A stretch of 64,000 nt of DNA, taken from NCBI RefSeq assembly GCF_053078305.1, contig NZ_CP166879.1. The stretch is one strand, 5' to 3'. The notes under the pieces are model-generated. The model ran no database searches, was not told the DNA's origin, and saw only the letters and a list, made by a program, of their open reading frames with translations. Shown here in pieces: positions 7,728 through 54,915 of the stretch (within the stretch, counting starts at the first letter, position 1; each line of letters opens with the position of its first letter). The position numbers were made by a program, and so were the translations under genes.

Positions 7728-8273
7728 ATGGATGCAGGGATAGCCTCAGTTGTCGCCGCAATTATTGCCGCAGCTGCAGCTGGAGTGGGGCTTGTTATCA
7801 CTAAGGAGAATAAAACATCTGAGTTTCGGCAAGCGTGGATAGATGGTTTAAGGGAAGAGTTAGCCGAATTGATGGAGAACTTTTTACAATTACGCACGAC
7901 TCCGCCTGAGAAGCTCCCTGAGGTGGCTGGAAAAATTTATTTTCTTTCCGCAAAAGTGAAGCTTAGGTTATCCAGTAAAAACTTAACTAATGAAGAGTCT
8001 CAGCTTTTGAAAATCATTGAGGATTACATTTTAAAAATGGATCGCTCATCTAACATTACAGATGTGGTCAGACAGTATTTTGAATATAGTTCCAGTGTTC
8101 TTAAAACTGAGTGGGAGAGAGTGAAGCGAGGCGAGAAAAAATACAGAGTCGCTATCACGGTTTCGTACTCAATATTGGTTTTTTTGGGGCTCTATTTTGC
8201 TTCACGTTTCATTCCAGCGATAAGTGAAAAAATCTTAGAAATTATAGAGTTTTTAAATTATTCGTTGTTCTGA
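7728..8273 (+). CDS. Hypothetical membrane protein (hydrophobic segments near both termini)
   Basis: 181-aa ORF; hydrophobic N-terminal (IASVVAAIIAAAAAGVGLVI) and C-terminal (VAITVSYSILVFLGLYFA) segments; RBS gagggg. Confidence 0.5.
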   Translation: MDAGIASVVAAIIAAAAAGVGLVITKENKTSEFRQAWIDGLREELAELMENFLQLRTTPPEKLPEVAGKIYFLSAKVKLRLSSKNLTNEESQLLKIIEDYILKMDRSSNITDVVRQYFEYSSSVLKTEWERVKRGEKKYRVAITVSYSILVFLGLYFASRFIPAISEKILEIIEFLNYSLF

Positions 8274-8464
8274 TGACAAGCTTTGATTTTCCATAATCAA
8301 CTTGTCATAATTAAGTCACCGGAGCCTGAACAACTCCGGTGACTTCTGCGCTAAACGGGGACGTTTATGCGCACATACAATCCAAACTCTCTTCTCCCTT
8401 CACAGATGCAGAAATGTACCTGCGATTTTTTGCATCCAGCGTTTGACCTCTGCGGAGGTGAATC

Positions 8465-8920
8465 GTGAACCTCCTACAAGATGGCATCAAATTGCATCGC
8501 GGTAACTTCACCGCTATCGGCCAGCAGATCCAGCCTTATCTGGAGAACGGAAAATGCTTTCGCATGGTGCTTAAACCGTGGCGTGAGAAACGCAGTCTTT
8601 CCCAGAATGCACTCAGCCACATGTGGTACAGCGAAATCAGTGAATACCTCATCAGCAGGGGGAAATCGTTCGCTACTTCAGCATGGGTAAAAGATGCTCT
8701 CAAACACACATACCTCGGTTATGAAACCAAGGACCTGGTTGATGTCGTAACCGGCGAAATCACTACTATCCAGTCGTTACGCCATACCTCCGATCTTGAT
8801 ACCGGAGAGATGTATGTCTTCCTGTGTAAGGTTGAAGCCTGGGCGGTGAATATTGGCTGCCACCTGACTATTCCGCAGAGCTGCGAGTTCCAGCTGCTGC
8901 GCGACAAGCAGGAGGCGTAA
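8465..8920 (+). CDS. ybcN: NinB/YbcN-like nin-region protein
   Basis: 151-aa ORF at the head of the DLP12-type order ybcN-ninE-ybcO-rusA-ylcG-Q; contains an S-Q-N motif. Confidence 0.5.
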
Positions 8921-9090: not shown

Positions 9091-9373
9091 TTTGAGAAAA
9101 GCAGCGCGTGGTCGGGAATGCCAGGTAAGAATCCCTGGCGTATGTAATGGCAACCCTGAAACGTCTGTACTGGCACATATCCGGCTGACTGGATTGTGCG
9201 GCACCGGTACCAAACCGCCAGACCTGATTGCCACCATTGCATGTTCTGCCTGCCACGACGAAATCGACCGCCGCACACATTTTGTCGATGCTGCATATGC
9301 AAAAGAATGCGCGCTGGAAGGTATGGCGAGAACACAGGTTATCTGGCTGAAAGAGGGGGTTATTAAGGCGTGA
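9083..9373 (+). CDS. ybcO: YbcO-like DUF1364 protein (putative nuclease, Cys-rich)
   Basis: [35 protein letters not shown]... matches DLP12 YbcO as recalled; real start is the internal ATG of ORF 9044-9373. Confidence 0.75.
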
Positions 9374-14921: not shown

Positions 14922-17850
<2,929 letters not shown>

Positions 17851-17977
17851 TTATGTCTATCATCTCCCCGTAGTTGTCCGCATCGTTCGCCAACTCCACT
17901 GAAACCCTTGCTGCGGCTGGAATGTCGTTTTCCATACTTTTGATGACCGTTCATCACACTTCCAGGTTTTCGCGGTT

Positions 17978-18031
17978 TTGTGTATTGCAATGTGTATTGC
18001 AAATTGGCGATCGGGATGGGTGTGTATTGCA
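17978..18031. repeat. Three copies of TGTGTATTGCAA upstream of the island integrase (attL-proximal, putative integrase binding sites)
   Basis: Copies at 17978-17989, 17990-18001 and 18020-18031; the same motif occurs in tandem at 29588-29610 near the other island end. Confidence 0.7.
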
Positions 18032-19605: not shown

Positions 19606-20184
19606 ATGAATAAAAATATTGCCGTGACGGGCAAGGGGTACGCTCGTCCAGTGAAAAAATTCTGTGATATTCGTGATCTTGTCGTTCTGCGCTTTGATGG
19701 TGTGAGCGTTCGCGTGGTGTATGTGAACGGCGATCCGTGGTTTGTTGCCGTTGACGTGTGCGCTGCGCTGGAAATTGTTGATCACAAGGTTGCGTTACGC
19801 CGTCTCGATGATGATGAAAAGGGGGAGTGTTTAATACCCACCCCAGGTGGAAATCAAACAATGCGAACGGTATGCGAGTCAGGGTTCTACAAACTAATCG
19901 CCAGAAGTCGGAAAGCTGTTACTCCTGGCACGTTCGCCCGTCGTTTCAGTAACTGGGTATTCAGAAATGTGATACCAGGTATCAGAAAAACGGGGGCTTA
20001 TGGTATCCCGTGGGGGGCATTACAGGATTTTTCCCGCCGTAAAGAGCAATATCAAATAAGTGCCAGCGAGAAGGGGAGGGAGCTACAGGCATGTAAGCGC
20101 AAAAAACGTGAACTGGAGGAAGAAGAAAAAAGGCTGATACGTGAATATCAGCCTGAGTTTTACTTTGGTGAGCGTATTCAGTAA
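19606..20184 (+). CDS. Bro-N domain protein (prophage antirepressor-like)
   Basis: N-terminal Bro-N-like region (VRVVYVNGDPWFVAVDVCAALEI...FYKLIARSRKA) with a charged coiled C-terminus. Confidence 0.6.
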   Translation: MNKNIAVTGKGYARPVKKFCDIRDLVVLRFDGVSVRVVYVNGDPWFVAVDVCAALEIVDHKVALRRLDDDEKGECLIPTPGGNQTMRTVCESGFYKLIARSRKAVTPGTFARRFSNWVFRNVIPGIRKTGAYGIPWGALQDFSRRKEQYQISASEKGRELQACKRKKRELEEEEKRLIREYQPEFYFGERIQ

Positions 20185-20521
20185 CCACACGCGGTGCTGA
20201 TTATACGGTACATCGTGTTAACCGAGAAGCTACCCACCAGCAAGGCAAAATCTTCTGCTAAAAAATGACATATGGCCAGTCGTCCGGAAAGCATGAAATT
20301 TTACAAAAATGGAAAATGAAGATTTTTATTGTGCTGGTGGGTAAAAACAAAAAGCGCCCCGTTGCCGGAGCGCCCTTGTGAACAATTAACCTGCTGCGAA
20401 AAAATTGGATCAGTGCAGGGAAATTATATCAACTGTGTGAAGAAGCGCCACAATTGCCAGTTTAGCTTTGCGGCGAACGCGTCAATAAAGAATATTCTTT
20501 CTTTAAATTCTGTTTGTGTAT

Positions 20522-20551
20522 TTTTTCGTAGTTTTTCGTAGTTTTTCGTAA
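20522..20551. repeat. Tandem decamer repeat (TTTTTCGTAG)x3 in island intergenic region
   Basis: ttttttcgtagtttttcgtagtttttcgtaagg; a related palindromic motif cgaaattttcgtag occurs at 29194-29207. Confidence 0.8.
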
Positions 20552-20647
20552 GGAGAAAGAGCGGCGCGTATGCACCGCTAAGGAGTTTATTTTCATGACT
20601 TATGCAGCTTTCAATCTTAGCACCGCCGTAGCTGGTGGACAAGGCTA

Positions 20648-20875
20648 TCAGCCAGGCGGTCGGTTTTTAGTGGCTTTTAACCGCCGTGGGTATTTCTCGA
20701 CAAAATCTTCAAGGGCAAATTTTTCTGGTGGCACTAAGCGCGGCGCTGGTGGTGGTATTTTTGTTCTGGTTAGTTCTTCCTCAAGTCTGGCGCAGGCTTC
20801 TAACTGCCTTTGCCGGATGATTTCATCATCTTGCGTTTGCGTGTCTTGTATTGGTGATAGTGTGTTGTTGGTCAT
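20648..20875 (-). CDS. Hypothetical protein (island, leftward operon)
   Basis: 75-aa acidic ORF downstream of the RHH gene on the minus strand; weak RBS. Confidence 0.35.
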   Translation of the reverse strand: MTNNTLSPIQDTQTQDDEIIRQRQLEACARLEEELTRTKIPPPAPRLVPPEKFALEDFVEKYPRRLKATKNRPPG

Positions 20876-20932
20876 GATACTGCCCTGTAAAGCAATGCGC
20901 CGGAGTACCTCACGCCACGGCGCTGATAGTGA

Positions 20933-21238
20933 TTATTCTGATTCTTGGGTCTTGCGACGCTGGAGTTCTTCGCGTGCAACGGTGACAAGTTGCCCGATTT
21001 CTTCCGCTGCTTTGATGCCGATTTGTTCGACCTTAGCCAGAGCATCCAGTGAAGACACAAGGGGATTTTCTCCGCTGCCTTCTGCCTGGCGGCGGGCGAT
21101 TTCACCGCGCATGGCGGTTACTATGAATCCGGCGTTGCTTTCACCGTCCAGTTTTACGGATTCCATGCCTTCAATAACATCATGCGGGATCCGAGCTGTC
21201 AGTGATTGTGATTTTGCGTTTTTTGAACCTGTAGCCAT
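20933..21238 (-). CDS. Ribbon-helix-helix (CopG/Arc-like) putative regulator, divergent from the island rightward operon
   Basis: SLTARIPHDVIEGMESV resembles an RHH beta-strand plus helix; ATG 21238 with RBS gaggat preferred over the TTG at 21253. Confidence 0.45.
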   Translation of the reverse strand: MATGSKNAKSQSLTARIPHDVIEGMESVKLDGESNAGFIVTAMRGEIARRQAEGSGENPLVSSLDALAKVEQIGIKAAEEIGQLVTVAREELQRRKTQESE

Positions 21239-21797
21239 CTGTAATCCTCTCAATGAAAGTGTAAGACAATATACACATAAAAAGTCTTACATAAAAGCAT
21301 TGACATGTAAGCCACCTATAAATAAAGTTACTTACACCTTGTTAATGCAAGGTGCAGAAACGACGAAACCCGGCAGTGCGCTAACACTAACCGGGCTTCT
21401 AACCACCAACGATAGAAAGCGTATCGAGGTAGCTATGAGAAATCATACCACACACCCGCAAGGGCGGGACTCGCACAACCTGAATAAATACATCTGGCGT
21501 TTTCTGGCCCGAAAAAACCAGTTGATCGCCAGTGTCGAAAATAGCTATGATTCCCGCGCACCTCATAAAACGGGTGCCGGGATTGGCGTCCTGGGCAAAA
21601 CTGAAGCGCATAACACGCGCCCCGCGTGTTTTTTTGTGCCGCATAGTCACACCTTATCAATGGTGGGCTGTACGGGGGCGGAGCAATCCGCGCCGGTTTC
21701 TTCAGTGTCCGGTTACGCCAACCCTGTACAGTCCGCCACCAGCGAAATTGGCGTTTCCGGTGGCGGTTATCTTAACCACACTGAGGAGGCTGCCAAC

Positions 21798-21989
21798 ATG
21801 GCTACTATCCCTACCCTTGTACATTCTCAAACCGCCTTTCTCTGGCGCTTTATCATCTTTGGCGCGTCAGACCATCAAATCATCCACGTCACCGCCTGGA
21901 CGGAACGCGAAGCGCGTAGCCGTTGCCCGTCCGGTTGTGTTGCTGTATTCGCCGCCCGTATTCGTCAGGAGGTGTGCCATGTGCAATAA
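21798..21989 (+). CDS. Icd-like small protein (host cell-division inhibitor family, tentative)
   Basis: 63-aa ORF with strong RBS gaggagg; MATIPTLVHSQTAFLWRFIIFGASDHQIIHV... recalled as resembling Icd-like proteins of P4-type islands; it is the only plausible part of ORF 20595-21989. Confidence 0.4.
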   Translation: MATIPTLVHSQTAFLWRFIIFGASDHQIIHVTAWTEREARSRCPSGCVAVFAARIRQEVCHVQ

Positions 21990-22431
21990 AACCACACCGG
22001 ACGCAGCCGCCGCGCTCACTACACTGATGCACGCGCTGATTGATATTTCTGTTATTGCTGACAGGGCGCATAAGCACGCCACCAGTGAAACAGAATATGC
22101 CGGGGCTTTCGTTCCTCATTCGCTGGCGGTTATGCAACTTAGTGCTGATATGGCGCTGAATGAGGCCAAAGCTATCCTGATTTCTGATTGTGAAAATGGG
22201 GGGGGGGTTATGCGTGATGATCGTTTTAATGCCCTGAAACAGGAGTTTGATGGTGCGCCTGATGATGCAGGTGATGCGCTTTCGTCAATATCCGAACTGA
22301 TAAGAGTGGCCTTTTTCTTACTTGGCACGAAAGAATATAAATCAACTGGAATAGACGTACTGAATATTACTGCTGATTATGCGGAATATATGGCAGAAGT
22401 GGATTTAAGAAAGATAACGGACAGGGGGTAA
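21979..22431 (+). CDS. Hypothetical protein (island early operon)
   Basis: RBS aggagg before ATG 21979; the upstream part of ORF 21532-22431 is rejected as a spurious extension. Confidence 0.5.
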   Translation: MCNKTTPDAAAALTTLMHALIDISVIADRAHKHATSETEYAGAFVPHSLAVMQLSADMALNEAKAILISDCENGGGVMRDDRFNALKQEFDGAPDDAGDALSSISELIRVAFFLLGTKEYKSTGIDVLNITADYAEYMAEVDLRKITDRG

Positions 22432-22671: not shown

Positions 22672-22971
22672 ATGAAACTTAAATATCCTGGCTTAACTGC
22701 CAGTGGCAACACTCACCCTAAATTTACGCGCGGTGATATTTACCGCGACCAGTACGGCGGCACGGTAATGATTAAGGGCGTGGCGGGACGGTGCGTAACT
22801 TACCGCCGTGAAGGCTACGAATATGATTGCGTGATGCCTGTTTATCAGTTCCGGCGTGATTTTTCTCTGGTACAGACCGCGCCGCATAACGTGCCCACCA
22901 GCAACGCCAGGGCACGGGCAAACATCCAGAAGCTGAAAACCATGATTAACGGATTCAGGGGTAAAAAATGA
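22672..22971 (+). CDS. Hypothetical protein
   Basis: 99-aa ORF; 3' end overlaps the rep start by 4 nt. Confidence 0.45.
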   Translation: MKLKYPGLTASGNTHPKFTRGDIYRDQYGGTVMIKGVAGRCVTYRREGYEYDCVMPVYQFRRDFSLVQTAPHNVPTSNARARANIQKLKTMINGFRGKK

Positions 22972-24377
22972 AACTGGCACCGAACGTAAAACGATTACCG
23001 AAAGATAAATACACCGAAGCGGTTATTTTTGCGGGTATTGATGCTCACTCATTCGCAGAGCATTACATCATTGCACAGGCCAAAAAAGCAGGCGATCCAG
23101 TCCCTCCCGTTTATCTGGGGCGTTATCAGTTAAGCGAACTGGATAACCTCCAGATTGTTGATGATGGGCGATACAGGGCGACGGTGATACGCGCCGGAAA
23201 TATTGAAGAGCCGCAGCTGTTAACCATCGCCACGAAACTGGCGAGCGCCGGAGTCCAGGAGGCGCGGCTACTTTCTGAAAATTTCGAATTGCTGGAGGAA
23301 TGGAGCGACCAGCTTCCACGGCTTAGGGAGGCATGGGAACGCGGGGAAAGCCTGGTCATGAAAAAAATTCCCCAGCGAAAAACCACGCTACCGATGAGCG
23401 TTGGATCTACCGGATACGACACACAGCTTGATTACGTGGTAAAGGGGATTATTCCGGCATCGTCGCTTTGCAGCATATACGGGGCGAGCGGTTCCTATAA
23501 ATCATTCCTTGCCGGATCGTGGGCGTGTCACGTTTCCACGGGCCGCCAGTGGGGAGGCCGCAGGGTGGCGCATGGCGCTGTTCTCTATGTGGTTGGTGAA
23601 GGCGGTATCGGCGTTCCGCGTCGTGTAAAAGCCTGGGAGGTTGTGCACGGTGAGCAGGTGAAAAATCTGTATCTGGTAAACCGTCCCATCTTTCCGGCTG
23701 TCCCGCTTGATGTTGATGAACTGGTTATTGCTGCCAGTCAGGTGGAGAGGGAAACGGGTAAACCTGTTCGCATGATTATTCTGGACACGCTGGCGCGTTG
23801 CTTTGGCGGCAATGATGAAAATGACTCCCGCGACATGGGGGCATTTATCCGTGGTTGTGACGAGCTTAAACGGCGCACAGGGGCTACGGTGCTGGTGGTT
23901 CACCATTCCGGCAAGGATGAAACAAAGGGGGCGCGTGGTTCCAGTGCATTTCGTGCATCACTGGACGCTGAATACCGGATACGCAGGGAGGACGCAGGAA
24001 GCGAAGCGCTGGTTATCTCATGCACCAAAATGAAGGACGCGGAGGAACTCAAAGAGGCTGCCTATGATTTGCGGGTGGTGGAGCTTTTTACCGACGCTGA
24101 CGGGGAGTTAATTACGTCGCTGGTGGTGGTGGATAAGCCGCGCCCTCCCGTTGAACTGGAGCGCATCGAGGAGGCAGGCAACAAGACGGAAAACCATACC
24201 GCGCTATGGGGGTGCATCCGTTCACGCACACAGAACGGCGACAAGTGCACGATCCCGCTGTTACGTGACGATATGAAAAAGCTGGGGTATGACACAAAAC
24301 ACCTTAAACGATGGTTAGCCAAACTGGAAAAAGACGACGTGATCTACATTGACGGTGATGATGTAGGACCACTGTAA
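22968..24377 (+). CDS. rep: Replication initiator/helicase (RepA-like AAA_25 RecA-fold ATPase with N-terminal primase-C-like region)
   Basis: Walker A-like SIYGASGSYKSFLA, Walker B-like RMIILDTLAR, and TVLVVHHSGKD; followed directly by an iteron array. Confidence 0.75.
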   Translation: MKLAPNVKRLPKDKYTEAVIFAGIDAHSFAEHYIIAQAKKAGDPVPPVYLGRYQLSELDNLQIVDDGRYRATVIRAGNIEEPQLLTIATKLASAGVQEARLLSENFELLEEWSDQLPRLREAWERGESLVMKKIPQRKTTLPMSVGSTGYDTQLDYVVKGIIPASSLCSIYGASGSYKSFLAGSWACHVSTGRQWGGRRVAHGAVLYVVGEGGIGVPRRVKAWEVVHGEQVKNLYLVNRPIFPAVPLDVDELVIAASQVERETGKPVRMIILDTLARCFGGNDENDSRDMGAFIRGCDELKRRTGATVLVVHHSGKDETKGARGSSAFRASLDAEYRIRREDAGSEALVISCTKMKDAEELKEAAYDLRVVELFTDADGELITSLVVVDKPRPPVELERIEEAGNKTENHTALWGCIRSRTQNGDKCTIPLLRDDMKKLGYDTKHLKRWLAKLEKDDVIYIDGDDVGPL

Positions 24378-29082: not shown

Positions 29083-29477
29083 CTTGCTGATATTCCCGAT
29101 AACGCAAAATTGCGCTCTGTCCTAACCCGTTGATATTTTCGGGAACAGCCAACGGCTGAGGCCGGAACAACGATTATCTTTCAGATAGTCAGAGCTACGA
29201 AATTTTCGTAGTTTAATTACTCGCCAGTTTATCGTTAACTCGTTGATATTTTCGGTAACCTCAATTTGAGGAGATCGGAAACATAACCCTTCACATTCTG
29301 AATGGTTATAATGACCACTCAGACCATCAAGGCAACCATAACGAACATCGTTACGGTTGGAGCTTTTACCCCACTGGGGGGAAGGTGCACATCTGGATCA
29401 TCATTACCGTGATCAAGGGTATGTAAAACCCACCAGCCTGATTAACTGTTAACCGGAAAAAAGCCAGGTAGCCAATC

Positions 29478-29501
29478 TCGATATGGGGATCCCCATATCG
29501 A
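29478..29501. repeat. Perfect 24-bp palindrome TCGATATGGGGATCCCCATATCGA
   Basis: Exact inverted repeat centred on GGATCC within the ~600-bp non-coding right arm of the island. Confidence 0.9.
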
Positions 29502-29587: not shown

Positions 29588-29610
29588 GTGTATTGCAATG
29601 TGTATTGCGA
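29588..29610. repeat. Two tandem copies of (T)GTGTATTGC(A/G)A near the island right end (attR-proximal)
   Basis: gtgtattgcaatgtgtattgcga; same motif as the attL-proximal triplet at 17978-18031. Confidence 0.7.
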
Positions 29611-29688
29611 CTCCTTTAAACGATAGGTTTGAGCATTCGTAATGTACTGTTTTTAAATTTTATTTTTTCCTGTCTTTTCATAAAAGCC

Positions 29689-48682: not shown

Positions 48683-49266
48683 TGGCATTCAGAATGAGTG
48701 AACAACCACGGACCATAAAAATTTATAATCTGCTGTCCGGAACTAATGAATTTATTGGTGAAGGTGATGCATATATTCCGCCTCATACAGGTCTGCCAGC
48801 AAACAGTACCGATATTGCACCGCCAGATATTCCGGCTGGTTTCGTGGCTGTTTTCAACAGTGATGAGTCATCGTGGCATCTCGTTGAAGATCATCGGGGT
48901 AAAACGGTTTATGACGTGGCTTCCGGCGACGCGTTATTTATTTCTGAACTCGGCTCATTACCGGAAAATGTCACCTGGTTATCCCCGGAAGGGGAGTTTC
49001 AGAAGTGGAACGGCACAGCCTGGGTGAAGGATACGGAAGCAGAAAAACTGTTCCGGATCCGGGAGGCGGAAGAAACAAAAAACAGCCTGATGCAGGTAGC
49101 CAGTGAGCATATAGCGCCGCTTCAGGATGCTGTGGATCTGGAGATCGCAACGGAGAAAGAAACCTTGTTGCTGGAAGCCTGGAAAAAGTATCGGGTGTTG
49201 CTGAACCGTGTTGATACATCAACTGCACCTGATATTGAGTGGCCTACGAACCCTGTCAGGGAGTAA
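48682..49266 (+). CDS. tfa: Tail fiber assembly protein Tfa
   Basis: 194-aa protein [41 protein letters not shown]... matches lambda Tfa as recalled. Confidence 0.9.
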
Positions 49267-54840: not shown

Positions 54841-54915
54841 AACTGATAAATGGTGTCCCCTGCAGGAATCGAACCTGCAATTAGCCCTTAGGAGGGGCTC
54901 GTTATATCCATTTAA
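54841..54915 (-). tRNA. argW: tRNA-Arg (CCU anticodon), argW
   Basis: Minus-strand sequence GTCCTCTTAGTTAAATGGATATAACGAGCCCCTCCTAAGGGCTAATTGCAGGTTCGATTCCTGCAGGGGACACCA; cloverleaf with CCT anticodon and CCA end. Confidence 0.9.

Follow-up and report, generated by a model that had tools for sequence, protein, structure and literature searches.

Positions 20.3-22.0 kb of the DNA stretch analysed here, a window of 64,000 nucleotides from contig NZ_CP166879.1 (assembly GCF_053078305.1), probably form the immunity/derepression switch of a satellite, with two layers of control. By its sequence the satellite is a helper-embedded phage-inducible chromosomal island (PICI), located in the portal gene of a lambda-type prophage. 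One layer would consist of an antisense RNA cassette, the other of a putative repressor of the YlcI/YnfO family acting on divergent promoters. The RNA cassette belongs to a well-known family, and its presence in this class of elements has already been reported. The YlcI-type repressor with its operators and a long antisense open frame, both of which we infer from sequence comparison, are new relative to the literature that was searched. The published picture so far consists of AlpA, reported as master regulator of Gram-negative PICIs and capsid-forming PICIs in work that does not contain the present switch, and of a one-line note on matches of C4 and isrK profiles in some elements. The arrangement proposed here offers a testable wiring diagram for the silencing and switch-on of enterobacterial helper-embedded and capsid-forming PICIs.

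An earlier, sequence-only reading of this region had pointed to a gap of about 560 bp between a leftward gene and a small rightward Icd-like open reading frame (ORF), and had suggested that the gap could encode a regulatory RNA. The start codons of the two divergent genes, ylcI and icd, are indeed 559 nt apart, and the gap holds matches to two RNA families, isrK and C4, both full length, on the plus strand and above the Rfam gathering thresholds. The Rfam scan found no others of these families in the window. The features of the cassette are the following.

21435-21989, plus strand: eta-like ORF of 184 aa with an Ash-family part and an Icd-like part; ATG 21435, Shine-Dalgarno sequence GAGG
21522-21551, plus strand: P_imm, internal promoter-like site TTGATC-18-TATGAT, agreeing with the consensus at 9 of 12 positions
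21558-21634, plus strand: IsrK/seqA-like RNA (Rfam RF01394, 66 bits against a gathering threshold of 50)
21583-21589, plus strand: target a1, UUGGCGU, in the loop of IsrK hairpin 2, complementary to C4 segment a'
21600-21606, plus strand: target b1, within the IsrK-like RNA, complementary to C4 segment b'
21612-21634, plus strand: intrinsic terminator of the IsrK-like RNA, a hairpin (21612-21630) followed by a T-run
21656-21743, plus strand: C4/CI-like antisense RNA (Rfam RF01695, 77.6 bits against a gathering threshold of 45)
21697-21708, plus strand: C4 segment b', the hairpin-2 loop UUUCUUCAGUGU, complementary to b1 and b2
21715-21721, plus strand: C4 segment a', ACGCCAA, single-stranded, complementary to a1 and a2
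Up to 21743, plus strand: 3' end of the C4 RNA, ...CCACCAGC
21748-21754, plus strand: target a2, UUGGCGU, complementary to a'
21778-21789, plus strand: target b2, which includes the Icd Shine-Dalgarno sequence GAGGAGG (21783-21789) and forms a 12-pair duplex with b'
21798-21989, plus strand: Icd/Kil-like gene, 63 aa (NCBIfam NF033153, 58.9 bits)

The C4 model is matched from position 1 to 87. Folded alone, the C4-like RNA adopts a minimum free energy (MFE) structure that is the same as the Rfam structure (-46.9 kcal/mol, z=-5.2). Relatives were taken from viral contigs via the Icd-like protein, which gave 80 loci; the 27 of these that carry the cassette were aligned, and covariation was counted over the 23 distinct sequences among them. 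Hairpin 1 has compensatory changes in all five of its pairs and the 17-bp closing stem is 99.7% paired. The RNA resembles the C4 family in this long closing stem that encloses two hairpins, with covariation, in its two exposed segments, which pair with one upstream and one downstream target set on the same transcript, and in the overlap of the downstream target with the icd ribosome-binding site, GAGGAGG lying 8 nt before ATG 21798. Assignment of the other RNA to the isrK family is based on its score above gathering and on the intrinsic terminator at its end. The promoter-like site P_imm, a consensus match only, ends 6 nt 5' of 21558, which is the first position of the isrK model. All 27 aligned sequences have an identical -10 hexamer at this site, and its -35 hexamer is unchanged in all but three of the sequences covering that site, with ATC invariant. 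We propose P_imm as the analogue of the P4 promoter PLE, with transcription starting at the first base of the IsrK-like RNA. Two other Rfam matches in this region were set aside: a weak c4-a1b1 match (21.2 bits) was superseded by the isrK match, and a SymR-like match at 21362-21434 (32.8 bits, gathering threshold 61) was treated as chance.

The pairing of C4 with its targets covaries and reassorts among the relatives, which is the behaviour expected of an antisense immunity determinant. The duplex of b' with b2, 12 pairs at -15.0 kcal/mol, covers GAGGAGG and was matched by none of 300 shuffled targets. Five of the seven pairs have changed on both sides in the a'-a1 helix, and likewise in the a'-a2 helix, both being 100% paired; compensatory changes were also found in 7 of 9 pairs of b'-b1 and in 7 of 12 pairs of b'-b2. 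In controls in which the 3' partners were slid by 1-3 columns, 35-47% of the cells were paired. When eight specificity types were compared in an 8x8 matrix, the cognate C4/target set scored highest every time. There are at least five a types and at least five b types, and these reassort: locus L033, for instance, has the a type of L024 together with the b type of L018. The types should determine which satellites coexist or exclude one another. The MFE structure of the 243-nt transcript has cis pairing of a1 and b1 with a' and b'.

Comparison with satellite P4 indicates that the control region is homologous to the P4 immunity region, beyond mere analogy. The suggestion in the sequence-only reading that the island's control resides here, as in the immunity region of P4, is thus borne out by the same two RNA matches in P4, by the membership of Kil in the Icd-like family and by an alignment with Eta. 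In the P4 genome the C4 model matches the CI RNA (8420-8507) and the isrK model the seqA region (8615-8692), in the same order and strand relation as in the window. The small ORF at 21798-21989, rightly called Icd-like before, matches NF033153 ('host cell division inhibitor Icd-like') well above the cutoff of 25 bits, and P4 Kil reaches 73.1 bits with this model. From the Shine-Dalgarno element to the start codon of icd, the window and P4 share the sequence GGAGGCTGCCAnCATGGCTAC. The internal promoter of P4 (TTGCCT, TATAGT, then 6 nt to the isrK 5' end) has the same geometry as P_imm, and both elements have an AlpA/Vis homologue upstream. In P4, an ORF of 214 aa at 8168-8812 (eta) ends in a segment of 65 aa (kil), as can be seen from the P4 sequence itself and from the summary in PMC10111431. 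The gap in the window had been described as lacking a convincing ORF; in fact the icd frame is open upstream, and ATG 21435 gives the 184-aa ORF, which runs through both RNA genes and of which icd is the C-terminal part, as kil is of eta. Residues 38-131 match Pfam Phage_ASH (E=7e-17), residues 135-178 match the Icd-like model, and a BLASTP alignment of the ORF to P4 Eta spans the C4 and Kil parts (111 aa, 32% identity, E=3e-8). Of the 23 distinct relatives, 22 have no interruption of this frame across the two RNA genes, and a 3-nt indel keeps it. On this similarity we regard the ORF as the counterpart of P4 eta.

The two regions also differ. In P4, eta follows directly after vis and there is no opposite-strand gene, whereas in the window a leftward YlcI/YnfO gene, in relatives sometimes accompanied by orf75, and a putative divergent promoter pair with candidate operators of its own separate alpA/bro from the RNA cassette. 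From isrK to C4 there are 21 nt in the window and about 107 nt in P4, the downstream genes are of PICI type (RepA helicase, SSB, capsid) instead of epsilon and alpha, and the late control of P4 by Delta, Ogr and Vis has no visible counterpart in the window.

The P4 system suggests how the RNA layer may work. There, processing of the leader yields the CI RNA, whose pairing with seqA and seqC leads to premature termination (PMC4825925, PMC3632133). P4-like prophages of S. Typhi require the IsrK-like RNA (PMC3632133). According to what is summarised in PMC10111431, it is translation of eta, and not the Eta product, that prevents immunity-specific termination. By analogy, a constitutive P_imm inside the long ORF would start transcription at 21558, and most transcripts would stop at the 21634 terminator to give a 77-nt IsrK/seqA-like RNA. 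Read-through RNA would contain C4, presumably cut out as a stable species. Segments a' and b' of C4 would then pair with a2 and b2, so that the Icd Shine-Dalgarno sequence is covered and Icd is not translated; this masking of the ribosome site was computed in the present analysis, as were the RNA genes, their structures, the covarying helices and the homology with P4. The Icd/Kil-like gene is the first translated gene of the replication operon, and the next ORF (ATG 21979) overlaps its end by 11 nt. Because of this overlap, the untranslated RNA would be terminated before the replication genes (RepA-type helicase, 22968-24377). Pairing of C4 with a1/b1 is expected to reinforce termination or to buffer C4, as in P4. 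The constitutive internal promoter, the processing and stability of C4, termination before the replication genes and the override by the eta-like ORF discussed below are modelled on P4 and P1.

The second layer concerns the DNA between the RNA cassette and the leftward genes, which has the following features.

20933-21238, minus strand: ylcI/ynfO-family gene, 101 aa; ATG 21238, Shine-Dalgarno sequence GAGG; NF041551 match
20648-20875, minus strand: orf75, second leftward ORF, without Pfam, NCBIfam or PHROG match
21256-21340, no strand assigned: operator-like TGTAAG(AC) repeats, found by an inverted-repeat search and by comparison of 24 variant lineages
21300-21328, plus strand: P_R, upstream rightward promoter-like site TTGACA-17-TAAAGT, agreeing with the consensus at 10 of 12 positions

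The minus-strand ORF at 20933-21238 is present as the sequence-only reading had it, and it matches the NCBIfam YlcI/YnfO family NF041551 at 71.1 bits. Its earlier description as similar to ribbon-helix-helix (RHH) proteins is compatible with the predicted fold but not with the profile searches: Pfam gave no RHH match, the best hit being PSK_trans_fac at E=0.089. The AlphaFold model, built with 30 homologues (mean per-residue confidence, pLDDT, 81.7), has an extended N-terminal strand, helices at 19-28 and 35-54 and a long C-terminal helix, which makes a beta-alpha-alpha, RHH-like fold likely, though with modest support. The best compact structural matches of the model are the RHH antitoxins Rv0298, MazE4, TacA1 and MazE6; a Foldseek comparison with the PDB gave no match. 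Some UniRef names of homologues read 'Arc-like' or 'CopG'. A weak HhH-like match of the C-terminal part, from a PDB sequence/profile search, was not relied on; the AlphaFold2 model shows one continuous helix there. A literature search for functional reports on YlcI, YnfO or DUF3950 gave none.

Half-sites of the type TGTAAG(AC) lie at 21260-21267, 21284-21291 (inverted), 21306-21311 and 21331-21336 (inverted), and they enclose both the rightward P_R and a conserved element, AGTATACAC, that can be read as a leftward -10. At these positions, about -40, +5 and +30/40 when counted from the conserved -35, the 24 variant lineages have different, element-specific 7-9-mers, and in most variants 61 nt separate the -35 of P_R (TTGAC/TTGAA) from the start codon of ylcI. 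The YlcI alignment varies most in the N-terminal strand, and the same strand goes with the same repeat: SLTARI/SVTARI with GTGTAAG, QQLNARF with GCGATTCAC or GGTATTCAC, KKLEARV with GTGGCTG and KQISIRI with TGTGATT. The YlcI-like protein is probably an RHH-type autoregulated repressor of the divergent promoters, and the element-specific repeats at 21256-21340 are its probable operators, in place of the decamer repeats to which this role had been given before. This assigns a possible function, that of operator-specific repressor, to the uncharacterised YlcI/YnfO family, which occurs also in the cryptic prophages DLP12 and Qin of E. coli K-12. A hairpin ACCTTG-loop-CAAGGT is found at 21338-21353, at the predicted start of the upstream rightward transcript, and its sequence is kept in several variants with differing operators.

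By binding to these repeats the YlcI-like protein would repress its own promoter and P_R, a role read from the anatomy of the locus; P_R is proposed as the analogue of the P4 promoter PLL. When P_R fires, or when transcription arrives from upstream, ribosomes would translate the eta-like ORF through both RNAs into icd. In analogy with P4, this would make the transcript insensitive to RNA immunity, and the replication genes would be expressed. Candidates for relieving YlcI repression are the Bro/Ant-like protein, AlpA and helper late transcription reading in. The leftward ORF orf75 is an accessory gene outside the core switch: most of the relatives with ylcI lack it, searches of Pfam, NCBIfam and PHROGs gave no match, and PADLOC gave only a marginal match to ZorE (E=0.009). 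None of ylcI, orf75, bro, orf150 and the eta-like ORF was assigned to a defence system by PADLOC.

The decamer repeats, which would be outside the operator set, are part of the following group of features.

20522-20551, plus strand: tandem decamers TTTTTCGTAG, TTTTTCGTAG, TTTTTCGTAA, detected with Tandem Repeats Finder (TRF)
20394-20403, no strand assigned: inverted decamer copy CTGCGAAAAA, from a repeat search
29195-29211, no strand assigned: palindrome CTACGAAA-T-TTTCGTAG, perfect 8+1+8, carrying the decamer core, in the non-coding right arm
20350-20377, minus strand: strong intrinsic terminator of leftward transcripts, with a stem of 12 pairs and a T-run after it
20579-20560, minus strand: leftward terminator-like hairpin

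The three-copy repeat was correctly seen before; TRF reports it at 20518-20551 with period 10, 3.3 copies and a score of 59. Its recurrence as a palindrome was also correct, although this lies at 29195-29211 and not at 29194-29207. The 8-mer TTTCGTAG occurs five times in the window, counting both strands, and four of the five are in the decamer array and the palindrome, so that the recurrence is unlikely to be due to chance. Placing the array upstream of the leftward genes was an error: it is 3' of them, between the leftward terminator-like hairpins at 20579-20560 and 20377-20350. In relatives with flanks that are 87-93% identical the array has changed. Locus L001 has TTGTTCGTAG TTGTTCGCGG TTGTTCGTTA and keeps the compensated stem of the 20350-20377 terminator, L043 has three drifted copies and L010 has two copies. 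From this drift and change in copy number, the array is to be seen as an unstable tandem repeat rather than a conserved operator. Use as a three-frame stop device was considered, the decamers providing TAG/TAG/TAA in all plus-strand frames in the window, and was rejected on finding that it fails in L001, L043 and L010. Some DNA-binding protein may nevertheless recognise the decamer core, given the palindrome and the inverted copy at 20394-20403.

Several points weigh against the two-layer switch as drawn here. Both P_R and P_imm are mere consensus matches, and the number of promoter-like sites in the region is not above that in shuffled sequences. No excess of third-position variation was found in the 184-aa ORF over 21522-21797 (entropy 0.51/0.45/0.54 in the distinct relatives); there is therefore no protein-level evidence for the Ash part, and its amino-acid similarity probably reflects RNA constraints. 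The 'Ash' similarity may merely come from conserved RNA genes read as protein, and translation of the eta-like ORF is putative. The link between operator repeats and the N-terminal strand of YlcI could be mere physical linkage within one mosaic block. Many relatives have Icd-like genes without any C4 or isrK match, and the RNA layer is therefore optional in this module. Finally, IsrK of the Salmonella prophage Gifsy-1 activates downstream translation and is not a target of repression (PMC4825925). If the IsrK-like RNA of the window worked in this way, it would open the read-through transcript in trans so that the downstream ORF is translated, and would be a trigger of induction in place of an immunity device. 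The isrK match above gathering and the experimental demonstration of the mechanism in Gifsy-1 (PMC4825925) speak for this, as does the cis pairing of a1/b1 with C4 in the MFE structure, for which free IsrK-like RNA could compete. Against it, b' pairs directly with the Icd Shine-Dalgarno sequence in a helix that covaries, which is the repressive geometry of P1 and P4, and collinearity with P4 extends to the start of kil, so we consider this explanation unlikely. Titration of C4 by IsrK, acting as a modulator, would be compatible with the immunity model. It is somewhat less likely still that ylcI and orf75 form a toxin-antitoxin or addiction pair, an RHH antitoxin with a small toxin, in which the repeats serve for autoregulation alone and the rightward operon is run by the RNAs and AlpA. 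The structural matches to RHH antitoxins and the presence of two small co-directional genes with repeats over their promoter would fit such a pair. However, orf75 has no significant family match and is missing from most of the loci with ylcI, so that no recognisable, pair-conserved toxin gene stands beside the RHH-like gene as in type II systems, and two of the conserved repeat positions flank the -35/-10 of the rightward promoter and not the ylcI promoter.

Two other explanations concern the decamers. The array could be a repeat of the origin or packaging type, recognised by a protein of replication or packaging and comparable to the 'type 2' repeats of the P4 ori. P4 has three tandem 10-bp repeats at 9176-9205 in the ori region beside PLL/vis, and the second copy of the motif in the window is in the non-coding right arm, close to other repeats. 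The P4 repeats share only the 3x10 layout with the decamers, without sequence similarity, no iteron field was found around the array, and its copy number and sequence are unstable among relatives; moreover, the PICI ori has been reported downstream of the primase gene (PMC10111431). This function is very doubtful. We give least credence to the original proposal, in which the RHH protein binds to the (TTTTTCGTAG)x3 array and to the 29195-29211 palindrome and these sites form the main operator. The motif is shared non-randomly by the two sites and the inverted copy at 20394-20403 adds to it, and some RHH proteins, such as omega and MetJ, bind tandem direct repeats. Nevertheless, the array is located 3' of the leftward operon, and its distance to each of the two promoters exceeds 700 bp. 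Relatives with well-conserved flanks, among which the ylcI/operator region can differ, have the array in drifted form or with two copies, and the promoter region holds other repeats that are element-specific.

A more far-reaching version of the two-layer switch can tentatively be put forward, although the odds are against it. It would be an undescribed two-tier variant of P4 immunity, in which a very long plus-strand ORF, its frame maintained for translation alone, contains ylcI and the divergent promoters in antisense orientation. Such an ORF is present at 20595-21989 (464 aa, with a strong Shine-Dalgarno sequence AAGGAG), running antisense through orf75, ylcI and the AT-rich divergent promoters, with the frame in phase with icd open for 422 codons. 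This frame is free of stops between the ylcI and icd start codons in 14 of the 24 variant lineages, against 3-15 stops in the other frames; in all 24, ylcI has one antisense frame without any stop. In some relatives the open frame in phase with icd extends to the gene just after alpA. Transcription from alpA or from the helper late operon would then be translated through the repressor gene, the operators and the RNAs, overriding both immunity layers at once, and satellite immunity groups would be set by the reassorting a and b types (at least 5 x 5). Besides the window (20595-21989, plus strand), a long open frame was noted in loci L007, L011, L013, L019, L023, L035 and L041.

The two-layer switch may also be compared with control regions outside P4. 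In the immI region of the plasmid prophages P1 and P7 (a1b1 - c4 - a2b2 - icd - ant) a C4-family RNA is found as in the window. Two exposed segments of that RNA pair with an upstream and a downstream target, the latter covering the icd ribosome site; icd is translationally coupled to the next gene, and heteroimmunity is brought about by changed pairing segments. The differences are that the window element is a satellite and that P1 and P7 have an antirepressor after icd, in place of which the window has a Bro/Ant-like gene upstream (19606-20184). At the isrK - orf45 - anrP locus of Gifsy-1, an RNA of the IsrK family has a promoter of its own and a leaky intrinsic terminator; a stable RNA made by processing comes next, and then a small ORF that is coupled to the following gene (PMC4825925). 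The window would share this arrangement. In Gifsy-1, IsrK activates translation in trans, which leads to prophage induction via AnrP and AntQ, whereas the window has the conserved, covarying pairing of C4 with the ribosome site. The Stl/Str region of Staphylococcus aureus pathogenicity islands is similar in that a leftward repressor gene faces a rightward replication operon; Stl, however, has no sequence or fold relationship to the repressor proposed here. Stl is inactivated by helper proteins, and nothing in the window indicates the same or allows a helper-encoded inducer to be inferred.

The element itself extends from about 17.85 to 29.69 kb (11.8 kb), with junctions near 17848 and 29688, and splits a lambda-type portal gene into an N-terminal part at 17021-17902 and a C-terminal part at 29689-30462, which match PHROG phrog_21 at positions 13-295 and 292-527. 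On the portal strand it carries int, the AlpA-like gene, the Bro/Ant-like gene, the RepA-type helicase gene, SSB and PerC-like genes, major head and decoration genes of its own and a small terminase gene; the capsid (lambda E-like) and decoration (D-like) genes are present in addition to those of the helper. The doubled motif TGTATTGC-n-TGTATTGC is found on both attP arms, at 17979-18002 and 29589-29612. The split portal gene, the plus-strand int, AlpA-like and RepA-type helicase genes, the last of these a helicase/primase relative, and this doubled motif are the features on which its assignment to the helper-embedded PICIs is based. Integration sites of the type B:Phage_portal_2 and the TGTATTGC-type motif are described for this class in PMC10111431. 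The published elements (Eco567.11capE and relatives) are likewise co-oriented in a lambda-type late gene, have the zone order Integration, Bro, Replication, Late and carry the doubled TGTATTGC on both arms (PMC10111431). The Rfam C4 and isrK profiles were reported there to match several Gram-negative PICIs and helper-embedded PICIs, as relatives of P4 CI and seqA that give immunity (PMC10111431). The name YlcI is absent from PMC10111431, and that paper has neither a mention of a YlcI/YnfO gene with operators nor an analysis of pairing and specificity types.

The same regulatory and replication module is present in a capsid-forming PICI of E. coli FHI_NMBU_10, where the RNA region is given as a pseudogene ('ash family protein') by the annotation pipeline PGAP. 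Of 5426 complete E. coli genomes, 2393 have DNA that resembles parts of the 1.9-kb region, and its building blocks are therefore common. In many of the relatives (L038-L040, L045-L047, L050, L051, L053 and L061) the distance from ylcI to the Icd-like gene is only about 200 nt, with no isrK or C4 match. Some others have a second c4-a1b1 + C4 unit 3' of icd (L024, L035, L037 and L043, at about 1720-1925), and an icd-like 5' end (MVAVNHIPHLVHTQTAFVWRF) is fused 5' of isrK in L014, L015, L017, L022, L028, L029 and L034, so that immunity modules occur in tandem or rearranged.

Some minor observations may be added. A run of ten G residues (22198-22207) lies inside ORF 21979-22431, the next gene after icd. 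This ORF matches phrog_2512 over its full length and the half-length families phrog_5146 (residues 1-72) and phrog_24341 (residues 78-148), and the split of these two exactly at the ten-G run suggests a slippage-prone tract. A possible extended -10 promoter, TGATATAAT, is located at about 20432-20424 on the minus strand and is followed by a hairpin and the 20377-20350 terminator. An 83-nt stretch within 20338-20432 on this strand folds at -28.2 kcal/mol (z=-3.1) and could be a small leftward RNA or simply mark where the leftward operon ends. In the non-coding right arm, which may be an accessory region for packaging or recombination, a direct repeat GTTGATATTTTCGG(G/T)AAC at 29130-29147, 29242-29259 and 29481-29498 flanks the decamer-type palindrome, and a second perfect palindrome, ATATGGGGATCCCCATAT, lies near it. 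Elsewhere in the window, the Rfam scan detected an IS009 RNA at 49025-49223 on the plus strand (218.5 bits), and a tRNA gene is located at 54854-54925 on the minus strand.

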